Below, one piece after another: positions 2,734 through 11,904 of a DNA stretch of 11,904 nucleotides. Source of the DNA: a virus; UHGV virus genome UHGV-2157276; one strand, 5' to 3'. The notes under the pieces were generated by a model. That model searched no databases. It had not been told where the DNA came from and saw only the letters and a list, made by a program, of their open reading frames with translations. How positions within the stretch are numbered: the first letter of the stretch is position 1; every line of letters starts with the position of its first letter. The position numbers and the translations under genes were made by a program.

Positions 2734-2844
2734 TTGGTGTTCTTTCAGTTCTTCAATTCGAATATTGGTTATGTCTGCATGTGCTATCTGCGCCCATATC
2801 ATCCAGTGGTCATAGCAGTCATTGATGTTCTCTGCTTCGATATC

Positions 2845-2874
2845 TGGCTGAAAGAGGGGGTTATTAAGGCGTGA
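2845..2874 (+). pseudogene. 3'-terminal remnant (about 10 codons) of a ybcO/nin-region gene whose stop overlaps the rusA start
   Basis: Frame ending [13 protein letters not shown] (stop 2872-2874) overlapping GTG 2871 of rusA resembles the C-terminus of DLP12 YbcO as I recall it. Upstream of about 2845 the frame is antisense xis-flanking DNA with no coherent coding signal. Exact boundary is uncertain. Confidence 0.3.
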
Positions 2875-3233
2875 ATACCTACAGCATCACATTACCCTGG
2901 CCTCCGAGCAATAATCGCTATTACCGCCATAATCGCGGGCGCACACACATCAGCGCAGAAGGGCAGGCATACCGCGATAACGTCACCCGAATCATTAAAA
3001 ACGCAATGCTGGATATCGGCCTGGCTATGCCAGTGAAAATCCGTATTGAGTGCCACATGCCGGATCGCCGTCGCCGTGACCTGGATAATCTGCAAAAAGC
3101 CGCTTTTGACGCACTCACCAAAGCAGGTTTCTGGCTGGATGATGCTCAGGTCGTTGATTACCGCGTTGTGAAGATGCCTGTTACCAAAGGTGGGAGGCTG
3201 GAACTGACCATCACCGAAATGGGGAATGAATGA
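2871..3233 (+). CDS. rusA: RusA-type Holliday junction resolvase, 120 aa
   Basis: GTG start at 2871. Protein [26 protein letters not shown]...[12 protein letters not shown] is recognised as RusA (nin-region resolvase of lambdoid phages / DLP12). Confidence 0.9.
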
Positions 3234-3370
3234 TGTTTGAGTTTAATATGGCAGAACTTCTTCGCCACCGCTGGATGCGCCTGCGCTTATATCGTTTCCC
3301 CAGTTCTGTTTTGACCGATTACCGAATACTGAGGAATTACGCCAAAACCCTGACAGGAGCAGGAGTATGA
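3230..3370 (+). CDS. ylcG: Small protein YlcG-like, 46 aa; not in the supplied ORF track
   Basis: ATGATG at 3230-3235 overlaps the rusA stop (3231-3233). Hand translation gives [46 protein letters not shown], stop TGA at 3368-3370. Matches DLP12 YlcG from memory. Confidence 0.6.
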
Positions 3371-3455
3371 AGTCAGAGATAACAATCAACTAATACTGTT
3401 TTATTGATTTTTGCTTGTAATTGGCGTTCTGGTCTGATTTTTGTGGAGTAAGTTG

Positions 3456-3839
3456 ATGCGTGATATTCAGATGGTTCTTGAGCGTTGGGGAGCGTGGGCG
3501 GCTAATAATCATGAAGATGTGACCTGGTCGTCCATTGCCGCCGGTTTTAAGGGATTAATTACTTCAAAAGTAAAATCTCGCCCGCAATGTTGTGACGATG
3601 ACGCGATGATCATTTGCGGGTGCATGGCCCGTCTGAAAAAGAACAACAGCGATTTGCACGATTTATTAGTAGATTATTATGTAGTCGGTATGACATTCAT
3701 GTCACTGGCAGGTAAGCATTGCTGCTCTGATGGTTATATCGGGAAAAGGTTACAGAAGGCTGAGGGTATAATTGAAGGGATGTTAATGGCATTAGATATC
3801 CGGTTAGAGATGGATATCGTTGTTAATAACTCTAATTAA
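3456..3839 (+). CDS. quuD: Late-gene antiterminator Q (QuuD-type), 127 aa
   Basis: ATG at 3456 preceded by GGAG (3445-3448, 7-nt spacer). Protein [24 protein letters not shown]...[11 protein letters not shown]. The ORF track starts at an upstream TTG (3441), which is less likely. Confidence 0.85.
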
Positions 3840-3849
3840 TATGCCAATT

Positions 3850-3891
3850 GTTTACTAAAAATTATTAAAAATGGGGCGTTGAGACGCCCCC
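3850..3891 (-). terminator. Intrinsic terminator for the minus-strand porin transcript
   Basis: Stem GGGGCGT / loop TGAG / ACGCCCC at 3873-3890; on the minus strand it is followed by ATTTTTAATAATTTTT. Confidence 0.5.
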
Positions 3892-3978
3892 AAAAATAAA
3901 GGGTAATATATAACAGAAGGTTTATATAGTTAGAAGCAAGGTTGTGCTCCTAAAGGAAGTGGCTTGAGGGAGCCACTT

Positions 3979-4012
3979 ATATGTTGGGGAGGCAAAGCCT
4001 CCCGCAACATAT
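3979..4012. terminator. Long stem-loop between Q and the nmpC 3' end; possible plus-strand terminator or mRNA-stabilising hairpin
   Basis: ATATGTTG-GGGAGGC / loop AAA / GCCTCCC-g-CAACATAT, a 15-bp stem with one bulge, followed on the plus strand by CTTTTAG. A second hairpin AAGTGGCT-tgaggg-AGCCACTT lies at 3957-3978. Confidence 0.4.
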
Positions 4013-4027
4013 CTTTTAGTAATCAAA

Positions 4028-5110
4028 TTAGAACTGGTAAACCATACCTACAGCAACGATATCATCGGTAGCAACGCCAGATGCTTTCGTGAAATCGCTC
4101 TTATCAATCAGGTTGATTTTGTAATCAACAAAAGTGGACATATTTTTGTTGAAGTAATAGGTTGCACCTACATCAATATATTCAACCAGGTCCTGATCAC
4201 CCCACGCACCCAAGTCTTTTCCTTTAGATTGCAGGTAAGCAACGGACGGACGCAGACCGAAGTCGAACTGATATTGTGCAACTACTTCGAAGTTTTGTGC
4301 TTTGTTGGCAATATGGTTATTACCAAAAACAGTCATGTTCTGGGTTTCAGAATAGGTGGTAGCCAGATAGATGTTGTTCGCATCATATTTCAGACCAGCT
4401 GCCCATACTTCAGCATTTTGACCAGATGCATTCAGGCTGTTGTTACCGTAGATAACCTGATTATTAGTGCGGTCAGATTTAGCATAGGTTGCACCTACAC
4501 CGAATCCTTCATACTCATAAGTAGTGGAGAAACCGAAACCATCACCATTAGCTTCAGTTACGTCAGTGCGGTCATTTTTACCCTGATACTGAGCAGCAAA
4601 GTTCAGACCATCAACCAGACCAAAGAAGTCATTGTTACGATAAGTTGCAACACCTGTGGTGCGACCAGTCATGAATACATCTGTTTGGGTCCAGGTATCG
4701 CCACCGAATTCTGGCAGAACGTCGGTCCATGCACCAATATCGTATGCTACACCGTAGTTACGGCCATAATCGATGGAGCCGTAGTCACCGAATTTCAGGC
4801 CAGCGAAGGCAAGACGGGTTTTATCTTTGGAGGAACCTTGAGATTCAGCGCGGTTGCCTTTGAATTCATATTCCCACTGACCGAAACCAGTCAGTTGATC
4901 GTTGATTTGGGTTTCACCTTTGAAGCCAAGACGGGCATAAGTAGTATCACCATCATCTGCATCATTAGAGGAGAAGTAGTGCTTAGCATTAACTTTCCCG
5001 TACAGATCCAGCTTGTTACTGTCTTTATTATAAATTTCAGCTGCCTGAGCAGACATCGCCATCAGTACTGATGCAGCTACAGCAGAAATTGCCACTGTTA
5101 ATTTTTTCAT
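4028..5110 (-). CDS. nmpC: General-diffusion porin of the OmpC/PhoE/NmpC family, apparently intact (360 aa)
   Basis: Start ATG at 5108-5110 gives [23 protein letters not shown] signal peptide then [16 protein letters not shown]; C-terminus ends VAVGMVYQF with the terminal Phe typical of porins. The ORF track's upstream start (5185) adds 25 non-porin residues. No IS interruption. Confidence 0.9.
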
Positions 5111-5140
5111 CGTGAGCCCTTTTTTTGAACTATTATTAAA

Positions 5141-5170
5141 AAATGATGTCACTGCAAATGATGTCACTGC
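5141..5170. repeat. Perfect tandem direct repeat, 2 x 15 bp (AAATGATGTCACTGC), 31-60 nt upstream of the nmpC start codon
   Basis: Read directly: 5141-5155 and 5156-5170 are identical. Confidence 0.85.
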
Positions 5171-5356
5171 GCGATAAATATTCATCTAATCAATGTGATT
5201 ATTTCAAGATGTAAGTTTTGGTTTCTCATTTGATTTGTGAAGTAGATCTCTATTTTTATCTGAACTTTTTCTATCGAATCCTATTCATGGCTCTTGGCTG
5301 AATAAAAATAAATCTATTAGCCAATTTATATTAATGGCTGTTATTTATAAGTGCTC

Positions 5357-5362
5357 TATAAT
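5357..5362 (+). promoter_or_regulatory. Candidate -10 hexamer of the late promoter (pR'-like)
   Basis: Perfect TATAAT on the plus strand about 190 nt upstream of the terminator at 5552-5584, similar spacing to lambda pR'/tR' (about 194-nt 6S RNA). No convincing -35 found. Confidence 0.3.
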
Positions 5363-5551
5363 TTGAAGATTCAATTTAAACCAGCTAAAAATAACGCTGG
5401 AAATTATTTGTTGGTTATTTGTTGAGATTTGCTTATGTATTTGTAGTGGTGTTTTCAATACTCGGTAGCATTCTCGCAAATATCATTTAGTGGTTTACGT
5501 ACGTAAAAAATTGGTTATGCTGTTAAGAGTGGTTACTTCGTCACACAGCTT

Positions 5552-5584
5552 AAACCCGCCGTCGAGCGGGTTTTTCCATTTTTT
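5552..5584 (+). terminator. Intrinsic terminator upstream of the lysis genes (tR'-like)
   Basis: AAACCCGC / loop CGTCGA / GCGGGTTT followed by TTTTTCCATTTTTT on the plus strand. Confidence 0.6.
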
Positions 5585-5712
5585 GAGTCTCGATATTAGC
5601 TGATAACCCAATACCTGAGTTATTCACTGACTCCGAGTCTGTTACGTTTCTGCTTTTTTGCGATACGTTGTATTCCCTCAATTTACACCCGCTTTGTCTG
5701 CGAGGTGGGGTT

Positions 5713-5928
5713 ATGAAATCCATGGATAAGTTAACAACGGGTGTCGCCTATGGCACCTCAGCAGGTAGTGCCGGTTACTGGTTTTTACAGCTGCTCGATA
5801 AAGTCACGCCCTCACAGTGGGCAGCAATAGGTGTGCTGGGTAGCCTGGTATTTGGCCTGCTGACGTACCTGACAAACCTTTATTTCAAGATTAAAGAAGA
5901 TAAGCGCAAGGCTGCGAGAGGTGAATAA
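5713..5928 (+). CDS. essD: Phage-21-type pinholin with dual-start motif (antiholin/holin), 71 aa
   Basis: ATG at 5713 preceded by [80 protein letters not shown]; two TM segments, Met1-Lys-Ser-Met4 dual start, charged C-terminus. The ORF track start (5668) is upstream with no RBS. Confidence 0.9.
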
Positions 5929-6425
5929 TGCCTCCATCATTACGAAAAGCCGTTGCTGCTGCTATTGGTGGCGGAGCAATTGCTATAGCATCAGTGTTAA
6001 TTACTGGCCCAAGTGGTAACGATGGTCTGGAAGGTGTCAGCTACGTACCATACAAAGATATCGTTGGCGTATGGACTGTATGTCACGGACACACCGGAAA
6101 AGACATCATGCTCGGTAAAACGTATACCAAAGCAGAATGCAAAGCACTCTTGAATAAAGACCTTGCCACTGTCGCCAGACAAATTAACCCGTACATCAAA
6201 GTCGATATACCGGAAACAACGCGCGGCGCTCTTTACTCATTCGTTTACAACGTGGGTGCTGGCAATTTCAGAACATCGACGCTTCTTCGCAAAATAAACC
6301 AGGGCGATATCAAAGGCGCATGTGATCAGCTACGTCGCTGGACATATGCTGGCGGTAAGCAATGGAAAGGTCTCATGACTCGTCGTGAGATTGAGCGTGA
6401 AATCTGTTTGTGGGGTCAGCAATGA
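5928..6425 (+). CDS. rrrD: SAR endolysin (T4-lysozyme-like, phage 21 R-type), 165 aa
   Basis: Start overlaps the holin stop (TAATG). N-terminal Gly/Ala-rich weakly hydrophobic segment [18 protein letters not shown] (signal-anchor-release domain), followed by an E..D..T motif region ([17 protein letters not shown]). Confidence 0.9.
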
Positions 6426-6883
6426 ACAGAGTAACCGCGATTATCTCCGCTCTGGTTATCTGCATCATCGTCTACCTGTCATGGGCTGTTAATCATTACC
6501 GTGATAACGCCATTACCTACAAAGCCCAGCGCGACAAAAATGCCAGAGAACTGAAGCTGGCGAACGCGGCAATTACTGACATGCAGATGCGTCAGCGTGA
6601 TGTTGCTGCGCTCGATGCAAAATACACGAAGGAGTTAGCTGATGCGAAAGCTGAAAATGATGCTCTGCGTGATGATGTTGCCGCTGGTCGTCGTCGGTTG
6701 CACATCAAAGCAGTCTGTCAGTCAGTGCGTGAAGCCACCACCGCCTCCGGCGTGGATAATGCAGCCTCCCCCCGACTGGCAGACACCGCTGAACGGGATT
6801 ATTTCACCCTCAGAGAGAGGCTGATCACTATGCAAAAACAACTGGAAGGAACCCAGAAGTATATTAATGAGCAGTGCAGATAG
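6422..6883 (+). CDS. rzpD: Spanin inner-membrane subunit Rz, 153 aa
   Basis: ATG at 6422 overlaps the endolysin stop (ATGA). N-terminal TM segment [19 protein letters not shown] then coiled-coil-like sequence. From the start of this gene the DNA appears lambda-like. Confidence 0.9.
6642..6824 (+). CDS. rzoD: Spanin outer-membrane lipoprotein Rz1, 60 aa, embedded in the +1 frame of Rz
   Basis: [20 protein letters not shown] lipoprotein signal with lipobox, Pro-rich mature region [16 protein letters not shown]; entirely inside Rz. Confidence 0.85.
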
Positions 6884-6884
6884 A

Positions 6885-6906
6885 GTTGCCCATATCGATG
6901 GGCAAC
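6885..6906. terminator. Hairpin between convergent Rz and bor; possible bidirectional terminator
   Basis: GTTGCCCAT / ATCG / ATGGGCAAC, 9-bp perfect arms, 2 nt after the Rz stop and 9 nt before the bor stop. U-tracts are weak on both strands. Confidence 0.4.
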
Positions 6907-6914
6907 TCATGCAA

Positions 6915-7208
6915 TTATTGTGAGCAATACACACGCGCTTCCAGCGGAGTATAAATGCCTAAAGTAATAAAACCGAGCAATCCATTTACGAATGTTTGCT
7001 GGGTTTCTGTTTTAACAACATTTTCTGCGCCGCCACAAATTTTGGCTGCATCGACAGTTTTCTTCTGCCCAATTCCAGAAACGAAGAAATGATGGGTGAT
7101 GGTTTCCTTTGGTGCTACTGCTGCCGGTTTGTTTTGAACAGTAAACGTCTGTTGAGCACATCCTGTAATAAGCAGGGCCAGCGCAGTAGCGAGTAGCATT
7201 TTTTTCAT
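6915..7208 (-). CDS. bor: Bor outer-membrane lipoprotein, 97 aa
   Basis: MKKMLLATALALLITGC signal with lipobox, then AQQTFTVQNKPAAVAPKETITHHFFVSGIG...; matches lambda Bor from memory. Confidence 0.9.
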   Translation of the reverse strand: MKKMLLATALALLITGCAQQTFTVQNKPAAVAPKETITHHFFVSGIGQKKTVDAAKICGGAENVVKTETQQTFVNGLLGFITLGIYTPLEARVYCSQ

Positions 7209-7498
7209 GGTGTTATTCCCGATGCTTTTTGAAGTTCGCAGAATCGTATGTGTAGAAAATTAAACAAACCCTAAACAATGAGTTGAAATTTCATATTGTT
7301 AATATTTATTAATGTATGTCAGGTGCGATGAATCGTCATTGTATTCCCGGATTAACTATGTCCACAGCCCTGACGGGGAACTTCTCTGCGGGAGTGTCCG
7401 GGAATAATTAAAAACGATGCACACAGGGTTTAGCGCGTACACGTATTGCATTATGCCAACGCCCCGGTGCTGACACGGAAGAAACCGGACGTTATGAT

Positions 7499-7909
7499 TT
7501 AGCGTGGAAAGATTTGTGTAGTGTTCTGAATGCTCTCAGTAAATAGTAATGAATTATCAAAGGTATAGTAATATCTTTTATGTTCATGGATATTTGTAAC
7601 CCATCGGAAAACTCCTGCTTTAGCAAGATTTTCCCTGTATTGCTGAAATGTGATTTCTCTTGATTTCAACCTATCATAGGACGTTTCTATAAGATGCGTG
7701 TTTCTTGAGAATTTAACATTTACAACCTTTTTAAGTCCTTTTATTAACACGGTGTTATCGTTTTCTAACACGATGTGAATATTATCTGTGGCTAGATAGT
7801 AAATATAATGTGAGACGTTGTGACGTTTTAGTTCAGAATAAAACAATTCACAGTTTAAATCTTTTCGCACTTGATCGAATATTTCTTTAAAAATGGCAAC
7901 CTGAGCCAT
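7499..7909 (-). CDS. ybcV: YbcV-like protein (DUF1398 family), function unknown; 136 aa from the best-supported start
   Basis: ORF on minus strand; the ATG at 7907-7909 ([11 protein letters not shown]...) has AAGG 8 nt upstream. In-frame upstream starts at 7951 (ATG) and 8032 (GTG) lack an RBS. AT-rich gene. Confidence 0.7.
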
Positions 7910-8194
7910 TGGTAAAACCTTCCATGTGATACGAGGGCGCGTAGTTTGCATTATCGTTTTTATCGTTTCAATCTGGTCTGACCTCTTTGTGTTTTGTTGA
8001 TGATTTATGTCAAATATTAGGAATGTTTTCACTTAATAGTATTGGTTGCGTAACAAAGTGCGGTCCTGCTGGCATTCTGGAGGGAAATACAACCGACAGA
8101 TGTATGTAAGGCCAACGTGCTCAAATCTTCATACAGAAAGATTTGAAGTAATATTTTAACCGCTAGATGAAGAGCAAGCGCATGGAGCGACAAA

Positions 8195-8401
8195 ATGAAT
8201 AAAGAACAATCTGCTGATGATCCCTCCGTGGATCTGATTCGTGTAAAAAATATGCTTAATAGCACCATTTCTATGAGTTACCCTGATGTTGTAATTGCAT
8301 GTATAGAACATAAGGTGTCTCTGGAAGCATTCAGAGCAATTGAGGCAGCGTTGGTGAAGCACGATAATAATATGAAGGATTATTCCCTGGTGGTTGACTG
8401 A
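8195..8401 (+). CDS. ybcW: YbcW-like small protein, 68 aa, function unknown
   Basis: ATG at 8195 with GGAG 7 nt upstream; [68 protein letters not shown]. Confidence 0.7.
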
Positions 8402-8565
8402 TCACCATAACTGCTAATCATTCAAACTATTTAGCCTGTGACAGAGCCAACACGCAGTCTGTCACTGTCAGGAAAGTGGTAAAACTGCAACTCAATTACT
8501 GCAATGCCCTCGTAATTAAGTGAATTTACAATATCGTCCTGTTCGGAGGGAAGAACGCGGGATGT

Positions 8566-8760
8566 TCATTCTTCATCACTTTTAATTGATGTATATGCTC
8601 TCTTTTCTGACGTTAGTCTCCGACGGCAGGCTTCAATGACCCAGGCTGAGAAATTCCCGGACCCTTTTTGCTCAAGAGCGATGTTAATTTGTTCAATCAT
8701 TTGGTTAGGAAAGCGGATGTTGCGGGTTGTTGTTCTGCGGGTTCTGTTCTTCGTTGACAT
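8566..8760 (-). CDS. ylcI: YlcI-like small protein (64 aa) with predicted ribbon-helix-helix DNA-binding fold
   Basis: MSTKNRTRRTTTRNIRFPNQMIEQINIALEQKGSGNFSAWVIEACRRRL: basic N-terminal tail, beta-strand NIRFP, helix, G-x-N/S turn, second helix. This is the RHH (CopG/Arc/ParD-like) pattern. Confidence 0.7.
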   Translation of the reverse strand: MSTKNRTRRTTTRNIRFPNQMIEQINIALEQKGSGNFSAWVIEACRRRLTSEKRAYTSIKSDEE

Positions 8761-8959
8761 GAGGTTGCCCCGTATTCAGTGTCGCTGATTTGTATTGTCT
8801 GAAGTTGTTTTTACGTTAAGTTGATGCAGATCAATTAATACGATACCTGCGTCATAATTGATTATTTGACGTGGTTTGATGGCGTAGATGCACGTTGTGA
8901 CATGTAGATGATAATTATTATCATTTTGCGGGTCCTTTCCGGCGATCCGACAGGTTACG

Positions 8960-8971
8960 GGGCGGCGACCT
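8960..8971. other. cosN: lambda 12-nt cohesive-end site (GGGCGGCGACCT), flanked by cosQ-like and cosB-like sequence
   Basis: Exact GGGCGGCGACCT preceded by ...GATCCGACAGGTTACG (lambda right end) and followed by TCGCGGGTTTTCGCTATTTATGAAAATTTTCCGG (lambda left end). Confidence 0.85.
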
Positions 8972-9148
8972 CGCGGGTTTTCGCTATTTATGAAAATTTT
9001 CCGGTTTAAGGCGTTTCCGTTCTTCTTCGTCATAACTTAATGTTTTTATTTAAAATACCCTCTGAAAAGAAAGGAAGCGACAGGTGCTGAAAGCGAGCTT
9101 TTTGGCCTCTGTCGTTTCCTTTCTCTGTTTTTGTCCGTGGAATGAACA

Positions 9149-9694
9149 ATGGAAGTCAACAAAAAGCAGCTGGCTGACATTTTCGGTGCGAGTATCCGTA
9201 CCATTCAGAACTGGCAGGAACAGGGAATGCCCGTTCTGCGAGGCGGTGGCAAGGGTAATGAGGTGCTTTATGACTCTGCCGCCGTCATAAAATGGTATGC
9301 CGAAAGGGATGCTGAAATTGAGAACGAAAAGCTGCGCCGGGAGGTTGAAGAACTGCGGCAGGCCAGCGAGGCAGATCTCCAGCCAGGGACTATTGAGTAC
9401 GAACGCCATCGACTTACGCGTGCGCAGGCCGACGCACAGGAGCTGAAAAATGCCAGAGACTCCGCTGAAGTGGTGGAAACCGCATTCTGTACTTTCGTGC
9501 TGTCGCGGATCGCAGGTGAAATTGCCAGTATTCTCGACGGGATCCCCCTGTCGGTGCAGCGGCGTTTTCCGGAACTGGAAAACCGACATGTTGATTTCCT
9601 GAAACGGGATATCATCAAAGCCATGAACAAAGCAGCCGCGCTGGATGAACTGATACCGGGGTTGCTGAGTGAATATATCGAACAGTCAGGTTAA
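9149..9694 (+). CDS. nu1: Terminase small subunit Nu1, 181 aa, full length
   Basis: MEVNKKQLADIFGASIRTIQNWQEQGMPVLRGGGKGNEVLYDSAAVIKWYAERDAEIENEKLRR...; N-terminal winged-HTH. Overlaps the A start by 26 nt as in lambda. Confidence 0.95.
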   Translation: MEVNKKQLADIFGASIRTIQNWQEQGMPVLRGGGKGNEVLYDSAAVIKWYAERDAEIENEKLRREVEELRQASEADLQPGTIEYERHRLTRAQADAQELKNARDSAEVVETAFCTFVLSRIAGEIASILDGIPLSVQRRFPELENRHVDFLKRDIIKAMNKAAALDELIPGLLSEYIEQSG

Positions 9695-10730
9695 CAGGCT
9701 GCGGCATTTTGTCCGCGCCGGGCTTCGCTCACTGTTCAGGCCGGAGCCACAGACCGCCGTTGAATGGGCGGATGCTAATTACTATCTCCCGAAAGAATCC
9801 GCATACCAGGAAGGGCGCTGGGAAACACTGCCCTTTCAGCGGGCCATCATGAATGCGATGGGCAGCGACTACATCCGCGAGGTGAATGTGGTGAAGTCTG
9901 CCCGTGTTGGTTATTCCAAAATGCTGTTGGGTGTTTATGCCTACTTCATAGAGCATAAGCAGCGCAACACACTTATCTGGTTGCCGACGGATGGTGATGC
10001 CGAGAACTTTATGAAAACCCACGTTGAGCCGACCATCCGCGATATTCCGTTGCTGCTGGCGCTGGCTCCGTGGTATGGCAAAAAGCACCGGGATAACACG
10101 CTCACCATGAAGCGTTTTTCCAATGGTCGTGGCTTCTGGTGCCTGGGCGGTAAAGCGGCAAAAAACTACCGTGAAAAGTCGGTGGATGTGGCGGGTTATG
10201 ATGAACTTGCTGCCTTTGATGAGGATATTGAACAGGAAGGCTCTCCGACGTTCCTTGGCGACAAACGTATTGAAGGCTCGGTCTGGCCAAAGTCCATCCG
10301 TGGCTCCACCCCCAAAGTGAGAGGCACCTGCCAGATTGAGCGTGCAGCCAGTGAATCCCCGCATTTTATGCGTTTTCATGTTGCCTGTCCGCACTGCGGG
10401 GAGGAGCAGTACCTTAAATTTGGCGATAAAGAGACGTCGTTTGGCCTCAAATGGACGCCGGATGATCCCTCCAGCGTGTTTTATCTCTGCGAACATAATG
10501 CCTGCGTCATCCGCCAGCAGGAACTGGACTTCACTGATGCCCGTTATATCTGCGAAAAGACCGGGATCTGGACCCGTGATGGCATTCTCTGGTTTTCGTC
10601 ATCCGGTGAAGAGATTGAGCCGCCGGACAGCGTGACCTTTCACATCTGGACGGCGTACAGCCCGTTCACCACCTGGGTGCAGATTGTCAAAGACTGGATG
10701 AAAACGAAAGGGGATACCTTCTGCCCGTAA
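9669..10730 (+). pseudogene. A: Terminase large subunit gpA, N-terminal 350 of about 641 codons, truncated at a deletion junction
   Basis: MNISNSQVNRLRHFVRAGLRSLF...[14 protein letters not shown] then 3 unrelated codons (FCP) and stop. Walker-A-like KSARVGYSK is present; the C-terminal nuclease half is absent. Confidence 0.85.
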
Positions 10731-11904
10731 GGTGAATGGTAAGGCGCTTTCAGCGGATATAACACTGACGCCGAAAGATATTGGTACGCTTAACTCAACA
10801 ACAATGTCATTCAGCGGTGGTGCTGGTTGGTTCAAATTAGCAACGGTAACCATGCCACAGGCGAGTTCTGTTGTTTCAATTACGTTGATTGGTGGCGCGG
10901 GATTTAACGTGGGGTCACCTCAACAGGCAGGTATATCTGAACTTGTTTTGCGTGCAGGTAATGGTAATCCGAAGGGGATTACTGGTGCTTTATGGCAGCG
11001 CACATCGACAGGGTTTACAAATTTTGCCTGGGTCAATACATCTGGTGATACTTACGATATTTACGTTGCAATCGGAAATTATGCGACTGGTGTAAATATT
11101 CAATGGGATTATACCAGTAATGCCAGCGTGACGATTCATACGTCACCAGCATATTCTGCTAATAAGCCGGAAGGGTTAACGGACGGTACAGTTTATTCAC
11201 TCTATACGCCATCAGAGCAGTTTTATCCGCCTGGCGCACCAATCCCGTGGCCATCAGATACCGTTCCGTCTGGCTATGCCCTGATGCAGGGGCAGACTTT
11301 TGACAAATCTGCATACCCGAAACTTGCAGCCGCTTATCCGTCAGCCGTGATCCCTGATATGCGTGGCTGGACGATTAAGGGCAAACCCGCCAGTGGTCGT
11401 GCCGTATTGTCTCAGGAACAGGACGGCATTAAATCGCACACCCACAGCGCCAGCGCATCCAGTACGGATTTGGGGACGAAAAACACATCGTCGTTTGATT
11501 ACGGAACCAAATCCACGAATAACACCGGGGCGCATACCCATAGTATTAGCGGGACTGCAAATAGTGCCGGTGCGCACCAACACAAGAGTTCCGGTGCATT
11601 TGGTGGCACGAACACGAGCATTTTCCCTAATGGTTATACCGCGATTTCAAATCTAAGCGCGGGGATTATGAGCACAACAAGCGGTAGTGGCCAGACTCGT
11701 AATGCAGGGAAGACATCATCAGATGGTGCTCATACCCACTCGCTGTCCGGCACTGCTGCAAGCGCAGGCGCACATGCACATACTGTCGGTATTGGTGCTC
11801 ATACGCACTCCGTTGCGATTGGCTCACACGGACACACCATCACCGTTAACGCTGCTGGTAACGCGGAAAACACCGTCAAAAACATCGCATTTAACTATAT
11901 TGTG
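10720..11904 (+). pseudogene. stf: Side tail fibre (Stf-type) gene fragment, 5'-truncated, open to the end of the window
   Basis: Frame 1 is open from 10702 to 11904 and is not in the ORF track because it has no stop. Hand translation ends ...[60 protein letters not shown], the His-x-His repeat C-terminal region of lambda-family Stf. Possible internal starts are GTG 10732 and ATG 10804. Confidence 0.75.

Follow-up and report, generated by a model that had tools for sequence, protein, structure and literature searches.

Why should a prophage that can no longer make virions carry a complete set of lysis genes, and is that set a new combination of parts or an old one? The question is raised by a DNA stretch of 11,904 nucleotides, presented as UHGV virus genome UHGV-2157276 and called here the window, in which positions 5713–6883 hold a holin gene, an endolysin gene and the overlapping genes Rz and Rz1. 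An earlier sequence-only reading described this segment as a fully intact mosaic cassette, in which a pinholin and a SAR endolysin of the phage 21 type are joined to lambda-type Rz/Rz1, and proposed that its presence in a defective prophage points to retention for a host-level role.

By its sequence and BLAST matches, the window derives from the E. coli chromosome, where it covers the ybhC side of the lambda attachment site (att-lambda). The ybhC gene occupies positions 1–1284 on the minus strand and is followed by the genes of a lambda-type integrase (1419–2489) and a lambda-type excisionase (xis, 2467–2685), both on the same strand, and then by rusA (2871–3233), ylcG (3230–3370), a late antiterminator gene, a porin gene and the lysis cassette. 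Beyond the cassette lie bor (6915–7208, minus strand) and nohD/nu1 (9149–9694), which encodes the small terminase subunit; the genes between bor and nohD are ybcV, ybcW and ylcI. An Rfam scan of the whole window returned zero families.

The prophage is indeed defective, as the earlier reading had it. The gene for the large terminase subunit (terminase A) starts at 9669, is truncated at about position 10716 and is fused there to a tail-fibre fragment that continues to the end of the window. In the best complete-genome match, strain A14 (99.8% identical), the matching element is located between ybhC and ybhB/bioA, and head and tail genes are absent from this sister element. Lambdoid elements at ybhC–ybhB have been catalogued for E. 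coli B and Crooks (PMC3032704). Compared with A14, the window is missing 5,881 bp, from just beyond xis to the 3′ end of ybcO. The junction of this deletion is a 5-bp microhomology at 2841–2845, and the deletion boundary is 26 bp upstream of rusA. A search of 5,426 complete E. coli genomes and of species-representative genomes turned up no other carrier of the junction.

The first gene of the cassette, S, encodes a holin of the EssD/S21 type (plus strand; Pfam family PF04971, E = 2e-35). The match to PF04971 covers residues 5–67 and scores 121 bits (cut-off 26), which places the protein within the S21 family. Its N-terminus reads MKSMDK, so that the 71-residue antiholin form starts at Met1 (5713–5928) and the 68-residue pinholin form starts at Met4 (5722–5928), in keeping with the Met1-Lys2-Ser3-Met4 dual-start motif that the earlier reading had recognised together with two transmembrane segments. 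Of these, TMD1 is weakly hydrophobic (the maximum of the Kyte–Doolittle index in a 15-residue frame is about 0.6) and consists of Gly, Ala, Ser or Thr by 63%, while TMD2 is strongly hydrophobic with a corresponding maximum of 2.1. All three small residues that we take to be characteristic of a pinholin TMD2, G40, S44 and G48, are found there. The protein is 100% identical both to EssD of E. coli K-12 and to S of the live phage PhiR34_1, and both products, S71 and S68, are annotated in the curated records of phages 21 and 434B. The Met1-Lys2-x-Met4 motif gives rise to an antiholin with an extra positive charge, while S21 68 forms heptameric channels of about 2 nm, which depolarise the membrane without letting a cytoplasmic endolysin out (PMC9636201). 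By analogy with S21, the window protein would likewise be a pinholin that makes small channels.

The second gene, R (5928–6425, plus strand), encodes a 165-residue SAR endolysin, a GH24 lysozyme of the RrrD/R21 type (PF00959, E = 8.4e-46). The product is identical to the RrrD structure 4ZPU_A in 164 of 165 positions, and it matches the R21 structures 3HDE and 3HDF at E = 4e-111 (3.7e-111 for 3HDE, which is full-length R21). Residues 7–26, the SAR segment, are composed of Gly, Ala, Ser and Thr by 60%, which bears out the earlier description of a Gly/Ala-rich SAR N-terminus. E35, D44 and T50 are all present, positions which we take to form the catalytic Glu-Asp-Thr triad. With 98.8% identity to R21 and RrrD, the protein is expected to be tethered to the membrane in a Sec-dependent manner and to be released and activated upon loss of the proton-motive force. 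Thus, the gene identities behind the proposed pairing of a pinholin with a SAR endolysin were correct (PF04971 and PF00959, with near-identity to EssD and RrrD).

The third gene, Rz (6422–6883, plus strand), encodes an i-spanin of 153 residues that matches the family of the periplasmic coiled-coil domain (PF03245, E = 2.6e-54) and whose N-terminal transmembrane domain reaches a hydropathy of 2.8 over residues 4–20, as expected for this class. The gene of the o-spanin lipoprotein Rz1 (60 residues; 6642–6824, plus strand; PF06085, E = 2.9e-20) lies entirely within Rz at an offset of 220 nt, i.e., in the +1 frame (the offset modulo 3 is 1), just where it had been noticed before. Rz1 possesses a VVGC lipobox with the lipidated position at Cys20 and a proline-rich mature part, the hallmarks of an o-spanin. 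C99 and C152 of Rz and C29 of Rz1, presumably the periplasmic cysteines that form intermolecular disulfides, are all present in the translations; the sole cysteine change, C18Y, falls within the transmembrane domain of Rz. The reading frames are tightly coupled: the stop of S overlaps the start of R in GTGAATAATGCC (TAATG), and the stop of R overlaps the start of Rz in CAGCAATGAACAG (ATGA), both overlaps having been pointed out previously. There are no internal stops or frameshifts in the lysis cassette. With all the reading frames at full length and the catalytic, transmembrane and lipobox residues kept, the cassette is fully intact, as claimed.

Whether it is also a mosaic of phage 21 and lambda genes is another matter. 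In BLAST comparisons, lambda homology begins at 6422, which is the first base of the Rz start codon, and extends to the lambda right cohesive end at 8959 with 99.3% identity, so that the switch to lambda-like sequence is located exactly where the sequence-only reading had put it. From this exact start, one could suppose that the junction between phage-21-type S/R and lambda-type Rz/Rz1 was made in this very prophage and is distinctive for it. However, lambda homology likewise begins at the own Rz ATG of phage 21, of K-12 DLP12 and of PhiR34_1; the junction is the same in the window and in phage 21 base for base over the 56 nt compared; and the arrangement is common to thousands of genomes. The comparison of the Rz-ATG joint thus refutes a recombination event of the prophage's own, to which we give next to no credence, and the idea of phage 21 genes having been joined to lambda genes falls with it. 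In the genome collection, many partial matches begin at query position 710, which is again the Rz ATG, with another lysozyme gene upstream; therefore, the R/Rz boundary is a general recombination joint among lambdoid phages. The joint at Rz is an old, shared and ancestral module boundary.

The alignment to phage 21 S/R and lambda Rz, proposed earlier as a means of locating the recombination point, places the lambda joint at 6422 and reveals an extra joint near the 3′ end of S. Mismatches between the window S and phage 21 S are dense in 5721–5907, mostly three bases apart, and sparse afterwards. The holin is therefore an S21-family protein of the EssD allele, and a second joint is located close to the 3′ end of the gene. 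The true departure from phage 21 is S, which the sequence-only reading had not noticed.

The genes and signals upstream of S bear on how the cassette might be expressed. The late antiterminator gene Q (3456–3839, plus strand) is of the quuD type and encodes a protein of 127 residues (PF06530, E = 3.5e-53) which is 100% identical to QuuD of K-12 and to the Q proteins of 434B and PhiR34_1, and 29% identical to Q21. This Q presumably activates the lysis operon. It is separated from the lysis genes by a moron on the minus strand, an intact NmpC/OmpD-like porin gene (4028–5110; PF00267, E = 3e-153). The porin is 100% identical to that of PhiR34_1, whereas the K-12 copy is broken by IS5.

The region between the porin and holin genes (5111–5712) is 93% conserved across six sequences and, from mapping in K-12, appears to comprise a divergent promoter region and, on the plus strand, a lysis leader of about 540 nt. 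The K-12 reporter fragment 'PDlm' extends from −121 to +650 (PMC7918800), and it maps to positions 5038–5839 of the window. Its forward primer is found at 5038; the reverse primer Pdlp12Rv has no match within 3 mismatches and resembles 5818–5839 with small indels, and this placement was adopted because the 772-bp K-12 amplicon agrees with the span from −121 to +650. By this indirect primer mapping, the K-12 start site would correspond to position 5174, or to 5159 if the proximal copy of the repeat is taken. Position 5174 precedes S by about 540 nt, and the start codon of the divergent porin gene is only about 64 nt away. The repeat in question is a perfect 15-bp tandem duplication in the promoter region, two copies of AAATGATGTCACTGC at 5141–5170. 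The unit is single-copy in K-12 and in the live phages PhiR34_1, ev207, Kati and 4A7, and the duplication was absent from the 5,426 complete E. coli genomes and the species-representative genomes, one of these searches being possibly affected by a low-complexity filter. Among the compared sequences, both the 15-bp duplication and the 5.9-kb deletion are private to the window. Lying in the mapped promoter region, the duplication could alter or abolish expression.

Within the leader, a terminator scan detected an intrinsic terminator on the plus strand (5552–5586), about 130 nt upstream of S, with the stem AAACCCGC...GCGGGTTT followed by a T-run. Its RNA folds with −12.2 kcal/mol (z = −1.97), and the element is invariant in five of the six aligned sequences, ev207 having one stem change. 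An intact Q gene and an intrinsic terminator on the way from promoter to S are thus both present. A start site followed by a conserved terminator within the leader is the layout expected of a Q-antiterminated late operon. The curated records examined annotate no pR′, Q-binding element or pause site for a QuuD-type Q, and neither a Q-binding element nor a pause site was found in the window leader. TATAAT at 5357–5362, which precedes the leader terminator by about 190 nt, was considered as a lambda-like pR′ and rejected, the hexamer being unconserved (TGTAAT in PhiR34_1, TATGAT in Kati).

The same features may be read differently, namely as those of a transcriptionally inert relic, in which quuD has become promoterless through the deletion, the leader terminator blocks read-through, and/or the duplication damages the promoter. 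The 5,881-bp deletion, which stops so close to rusA, is in line with such silence, the window containing neither the early promoter nor the N/nut region; so are the conserved terminator within the leader and the position of the duplication at the mapped K-12 start-site region, and a consensus scan of the plus strand from 3680 to 5712 detected no sigma-70 promoter-like site. However, K-12 also lacks the early region, and its operon is reported to be transcribed and Q-responsive (PMC7918800). Moreover, the proximal repeat copy keeps its spacing to an upstream GAACT motif, so that a sigma-E-type promoter could survive the duplication. Taken together, silence of the cassette is possible, though rather doubtful.

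Does the intactness of the cassette tell of a function for the host? The earlier reading had reasoned that an intact cassette in a prophage without virions suggests retention at the host level, and for the window this reasoning does not hold. None of the 15 genes that survive is shortened, not even nohD/nu1, a gene that is useless without the large terminase subunit, and the remnant has decayed by deletion and not by point mutation. Divergence amounts to about 0.2% or less from sister remnants and to about 1% from live phages. Since a stop would arise or a start be lost through only 5.75% of the single substitutions that the cassette can undergo, under neutrality it would stay intact with a probability of 0.84 given 3 hits and of 0.49 given 12. 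The ratio dN/dS, tried as a test of host-level selection, was uninformative: in R it is 0.04–0.06 and is alike whether measured against a live phage or against the K-12 remnant, and the purifying selection, being equal in both comparisons, therefore reflects the phage-phase history of the gene. The intactness of the cassette in the window is thus no evidence of host-level retention: its neighbours are equally intact, Q, the porin and S are identical to the proteins of a live phage, and a cassette under no selection would stay intact with a high probability, about 0.5–0.85.

A host role is not a new hypothesis for such a cassette either. For the DLP12 module of K-12, it has already been published and partly tested (PMC7918800, with its refs 17, 19, 27 and 28; PMC2408971); the topics covered are biofilm, a Q-like regulator, RpoE, Hha, loss of the module in Shigella and production of outer-membrane vesicles. 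Deletions of DLP12 lysis genes are reported to have phenotypes in K-12 (PMC7918800). By the same token, the host might select for low-level expression of the cassette in the window, which would serve murein turnover or the envelope and thereby affect biofilm, curli and vesicles. The K-12 phenotypes, together with the reported regulation (a Q-like factor, RpoE, Hha and environmental signals; PMC7918800, PMC2408971), speak for such domestication, as do the identity of S to EssD and the difference of R from RrrD by only two residues. The best argument is that two prophages which have different attachment sites, different integrases and different terminase breakpoints have both kept the block that starts at ybcO, includes the lysis genes and ends at nohD. 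Yet nohD, ylcI and ybcW, which are without plausible host value, are equally intact, and selection and recency are inseparable in the window. The identity of the proteins to live-phage ones, the equal dN/dS against live phage and remnant and the high neutral expectation weigh against domestication as well, and the K-12 phenotypes were obtained in a single laboratory lineage and concern DLP12, not an att-lambda element. We therefore regard domestication as unlikely in the present case.

A bolder form of the argument would treat the block ybcO-rusA-Q-porin-S-R-Rz/Rz1-bor-...-nohD, which is present in two independently decayed prophages (at argU and at att-lambda), as a natural replicate of selection for a Q-controlled lysis/porin block, with the 15-bp duplication as a host-side regulatory adjustment of the domesticated operon. 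This we hold to be distinctly improbable. The att-lambda element nevertheless offers a second, independent locus at which the domestication idea may be addressed.

The reading that very probably applies is the plainest one: the cassette represents a standard late lysis operon, that of a DLP12-like lambdoid phage, and it is situated in an att-lambda prophage that has been cut down by a few large deletions, and no special selective explanation is required. The cassette would be intact because the remnant is young, because it decayed by deletion and because modules exchange freely with live lambdoid phages. If the operon works as its relatives do, transcription would begin in the porin–holin intergenic region, a placement taken from the K-12 mapping, and would have to pass the terminator at 5552–5586, high expression presumably needing the QuuD antiterminator. 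S would then yield the S68 pinholin and the S71 antiholin with its additional lysine. The pinholin would build up in the inner membrane and trigger, whereupon the weakly hydrophobic TMD1 would exit the bilayer and TMD2 would form small heptameric channels, so that the proton-motive force would collapse. The membrane-tethered SAR endolysin would be freed into the periplasm in an active state to cut murein, and the Rz/Rz1 spanin complex would then disrupt the outer membrane. The pinholin/SAR-endolysin/spanin mechanism is summarised in PMC9636201; the steps from the dual S products to outer-membrane disruption are established for phages 21 and lambda and may be transferred to the window by near-identity of the proteins. 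The cassette is thus a textbook operon of its kind, already studied in K-12 DLP12, and is of little value beyond its correct annotation. A more general lesson is that, in a prophage which is young and has decayed by deletion, intact lysis genes call for a control on the neighbour genes before they are taken as a sign of domestication.

Among the known systems, lambda shares with the window the 99.3%-identical stretch that begins at the Rz ATG and reaches the right end (6422–8959), in which bor is 100% identical at the nucleotide level, Rz is 99.1% identical in nucleotides and 98.7% in amino acids, and Rz1 differs by 1 nt. In contrast, lambda S, a class I holin that makes large holes, and lambda R, a cytoplasmic transglycosylase, have no relationship to their counterparts in the window, the 21–22% amino acid identity being that of a forced global alignment. 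Phage 21 (S21-R21-Rz-Rz1) resembles the window in its four genes, their overlaps, the dual start and the joint at the Rz ATG, with nucleotide identities of 97% in R, 99.1% in Rz and 100% in Rz1. It differs in S (76% of nucleotides and 86% of amino acids identical, with 10 substitutions, none of which affects G40, S44 or G48) and upstream of S, where the two sequences have no homology: phage 21 has Q21, pR′, a terminator and two tRNAs, while the window has a QuuD-type Q and the porin gene.

The live phages PhiR34_1, PhiR68_2, ev243 and 434B share the whole Q-porin-leader-S-R-Rz/Rz1 module at 97–99% nucleotide identity; for the first three, identity is about 99% in the cassette and 97–98% in the part made up of Q, the porin gene and the leader. 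They differ from the window in being complete, plaque-forming genomes with full terminase and morphogenesis genes and with a single 15-bp unit. According to curated records, 434B arose from a crossover with DLP12 and is a viable 434 recombinant that carries Q-nmpC::IS5-S-R; therefore, the DLP12 version of the module supports lytic growth. Of the 5,426 complete E. coli genomes, 3,587, or about two-thirds, contain the cassette over at least 80% of its length, and so do dozens of plaque-forming phages.

The closest likeness is to the DLP12 (qsr′) prophage of K-12 with its essD-rrrD(ybcS)-rzpD/rzoD lysis genes. The gene order is the same (ybcO-rusA-ylcG-quuD-porin-S-R-Rz/Rz1-bor-ybcV-ybcW-ylcI-nohD), and BLAST shows collinearity with K-12 over 2841–4069 at 98.2% and over 4086–9976 at 96.0%, which establishes synteny of the late region. 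Overall, the stretch from ybcO to the terminase fragment is collinear with DLP12 at 96–98% nucleotide identity, aaaD being the other end of the syntenic stretch. Protein identity is 100% for EssD and QuuD, 98.8% for RrrD, 98% for RzoD and 96% for RzpD. At the same time, the two elements differ in several respects: the porin gene of the window is intact, whereas that of K-12 is nmpC::IS5; terminase A is truncated at about residue 349 in the window and at residue 103 in K-12; and the window leader has an extra 17 bp in addition to the 15-bp duplication. Finally, DLP12 resides at argU with intD, while the element in the window is at att-lambda, with ybhC followed by lambda-type int and xis; therefore, the window carries a DLP12-like late module in another prophage, and not DLP12 itself.

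Relative to the sister-strain reference A14, a deletion of 5,881 bp has removed the span from just beyond xis through the 3′ end of ybcO, leaving only ~26 bp of native sequence upstream of rusA-ylcG-quuD. The deletion junction (2841-2845) bears a 5-bp microhomology (TATCT) and is matched neither by any of 5,426 complete E. coli genomes nor by species-representative genomes.

Downstream of the antiterminator gene Q (quuD), an NmpC/OmpD-like porin gene encoding 360 aa occupies the minus strand (4028-5110), opposite to the flanking Q and the holin gene S. The window copy is intact, whereas those of K-12 DLP12, a cryptic E. coli prophage with the same late module, and of 434B, a 434 recombinant carrying that module, are interrupted by IS5; its protein product is 100% identical to the porin of the live phage PhiR34_1. 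Were late transcription to begin immediately downstream of Q, it would cross the porin gene in the antisense direction. The stretch downstream of this gene, up to the Q stop codon, contains a strong minus-strand terminator (3873-3890; GGGGCGTCTCAACGCCCC with a T-run after it) and additional hairpins at 3958-4000, which presumably protect Q from antisense transcripts of the porin gene.

The divergent porin/lysis-operon promoter region contains a perfect tandem duplication of 15 bp (two copies of AAATGATGTCACTGC, 5141-5170), at the position to which the start site of the K-12 lysis operon maps. K-12 DLP12 and four live phages have one copy of this unit as opposed to two in the window, and searches of the same 5,426 complete genomes and of the species-representative set returned no match to the duplication. 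An upstream TGAACTA motif is still spaced 16 nt from the proximal copy, from which we infer a putative sigma-E-like geometry. Further downstream, between the leader terminator and the ribosome-binding site of S, there is a 17-bp segment (5653-5669; CTGCTTTTTTGCGATA plus one base), which is shared by the phages PhiR34_1, ev207, and 4A7 but is missing from K-12 DLP12 and phage Kati; the segment is thus an indel polymorphism.

Compared with phage 21, the lysis cassette has a second mosaic joint, at 5721-5975. The window holin gene differs from that of phage 21 (S21) at 51 nucleotides, mostly at three-base spacing, with synonymous sites saturated and a dN of 0.08, while phage 21 and the window share 97-99% identity from ~5908 onward, so the history of the S allele goes back much further than that of R (the SAR endolysin gene) and Rz. 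Many genomes in the ecoli_genomes collection match the cassette only from the Rz ATG on (window 6422, query position 710) and carry a different lysozyme upstream, either GH24 or lambda-type. Other matches in this collection stop at query positions 708, 826, 954-957, or 1099, and all these edges look like recurrent, population-scale recombination joints in lambdoid lysis cassettes.

At the right end of the window, the small terminase subunit gene nohD/nu1 (9149-9694; 181 aa) is fully intact although it has no partner, and its product shares 98-99% identity with both K-12 NohD and the Nu1 protein of a live phage. It thus serves as an internal control: intactness by itself is no evidence of selection. 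The large-subunit gene (9669-10730) ends prematurely after ~349 codons, where a tail-fibre fragment (10714-11904) is fused to it, and one deletion at this fusion took out all head and tail genes. In K-12 DLP12, the terminase breakpoint is different, with aaaD retaining 103 codons instead of ~349; therefore, the morphogenesis genes were lost independently or stepwise in the two remnants.
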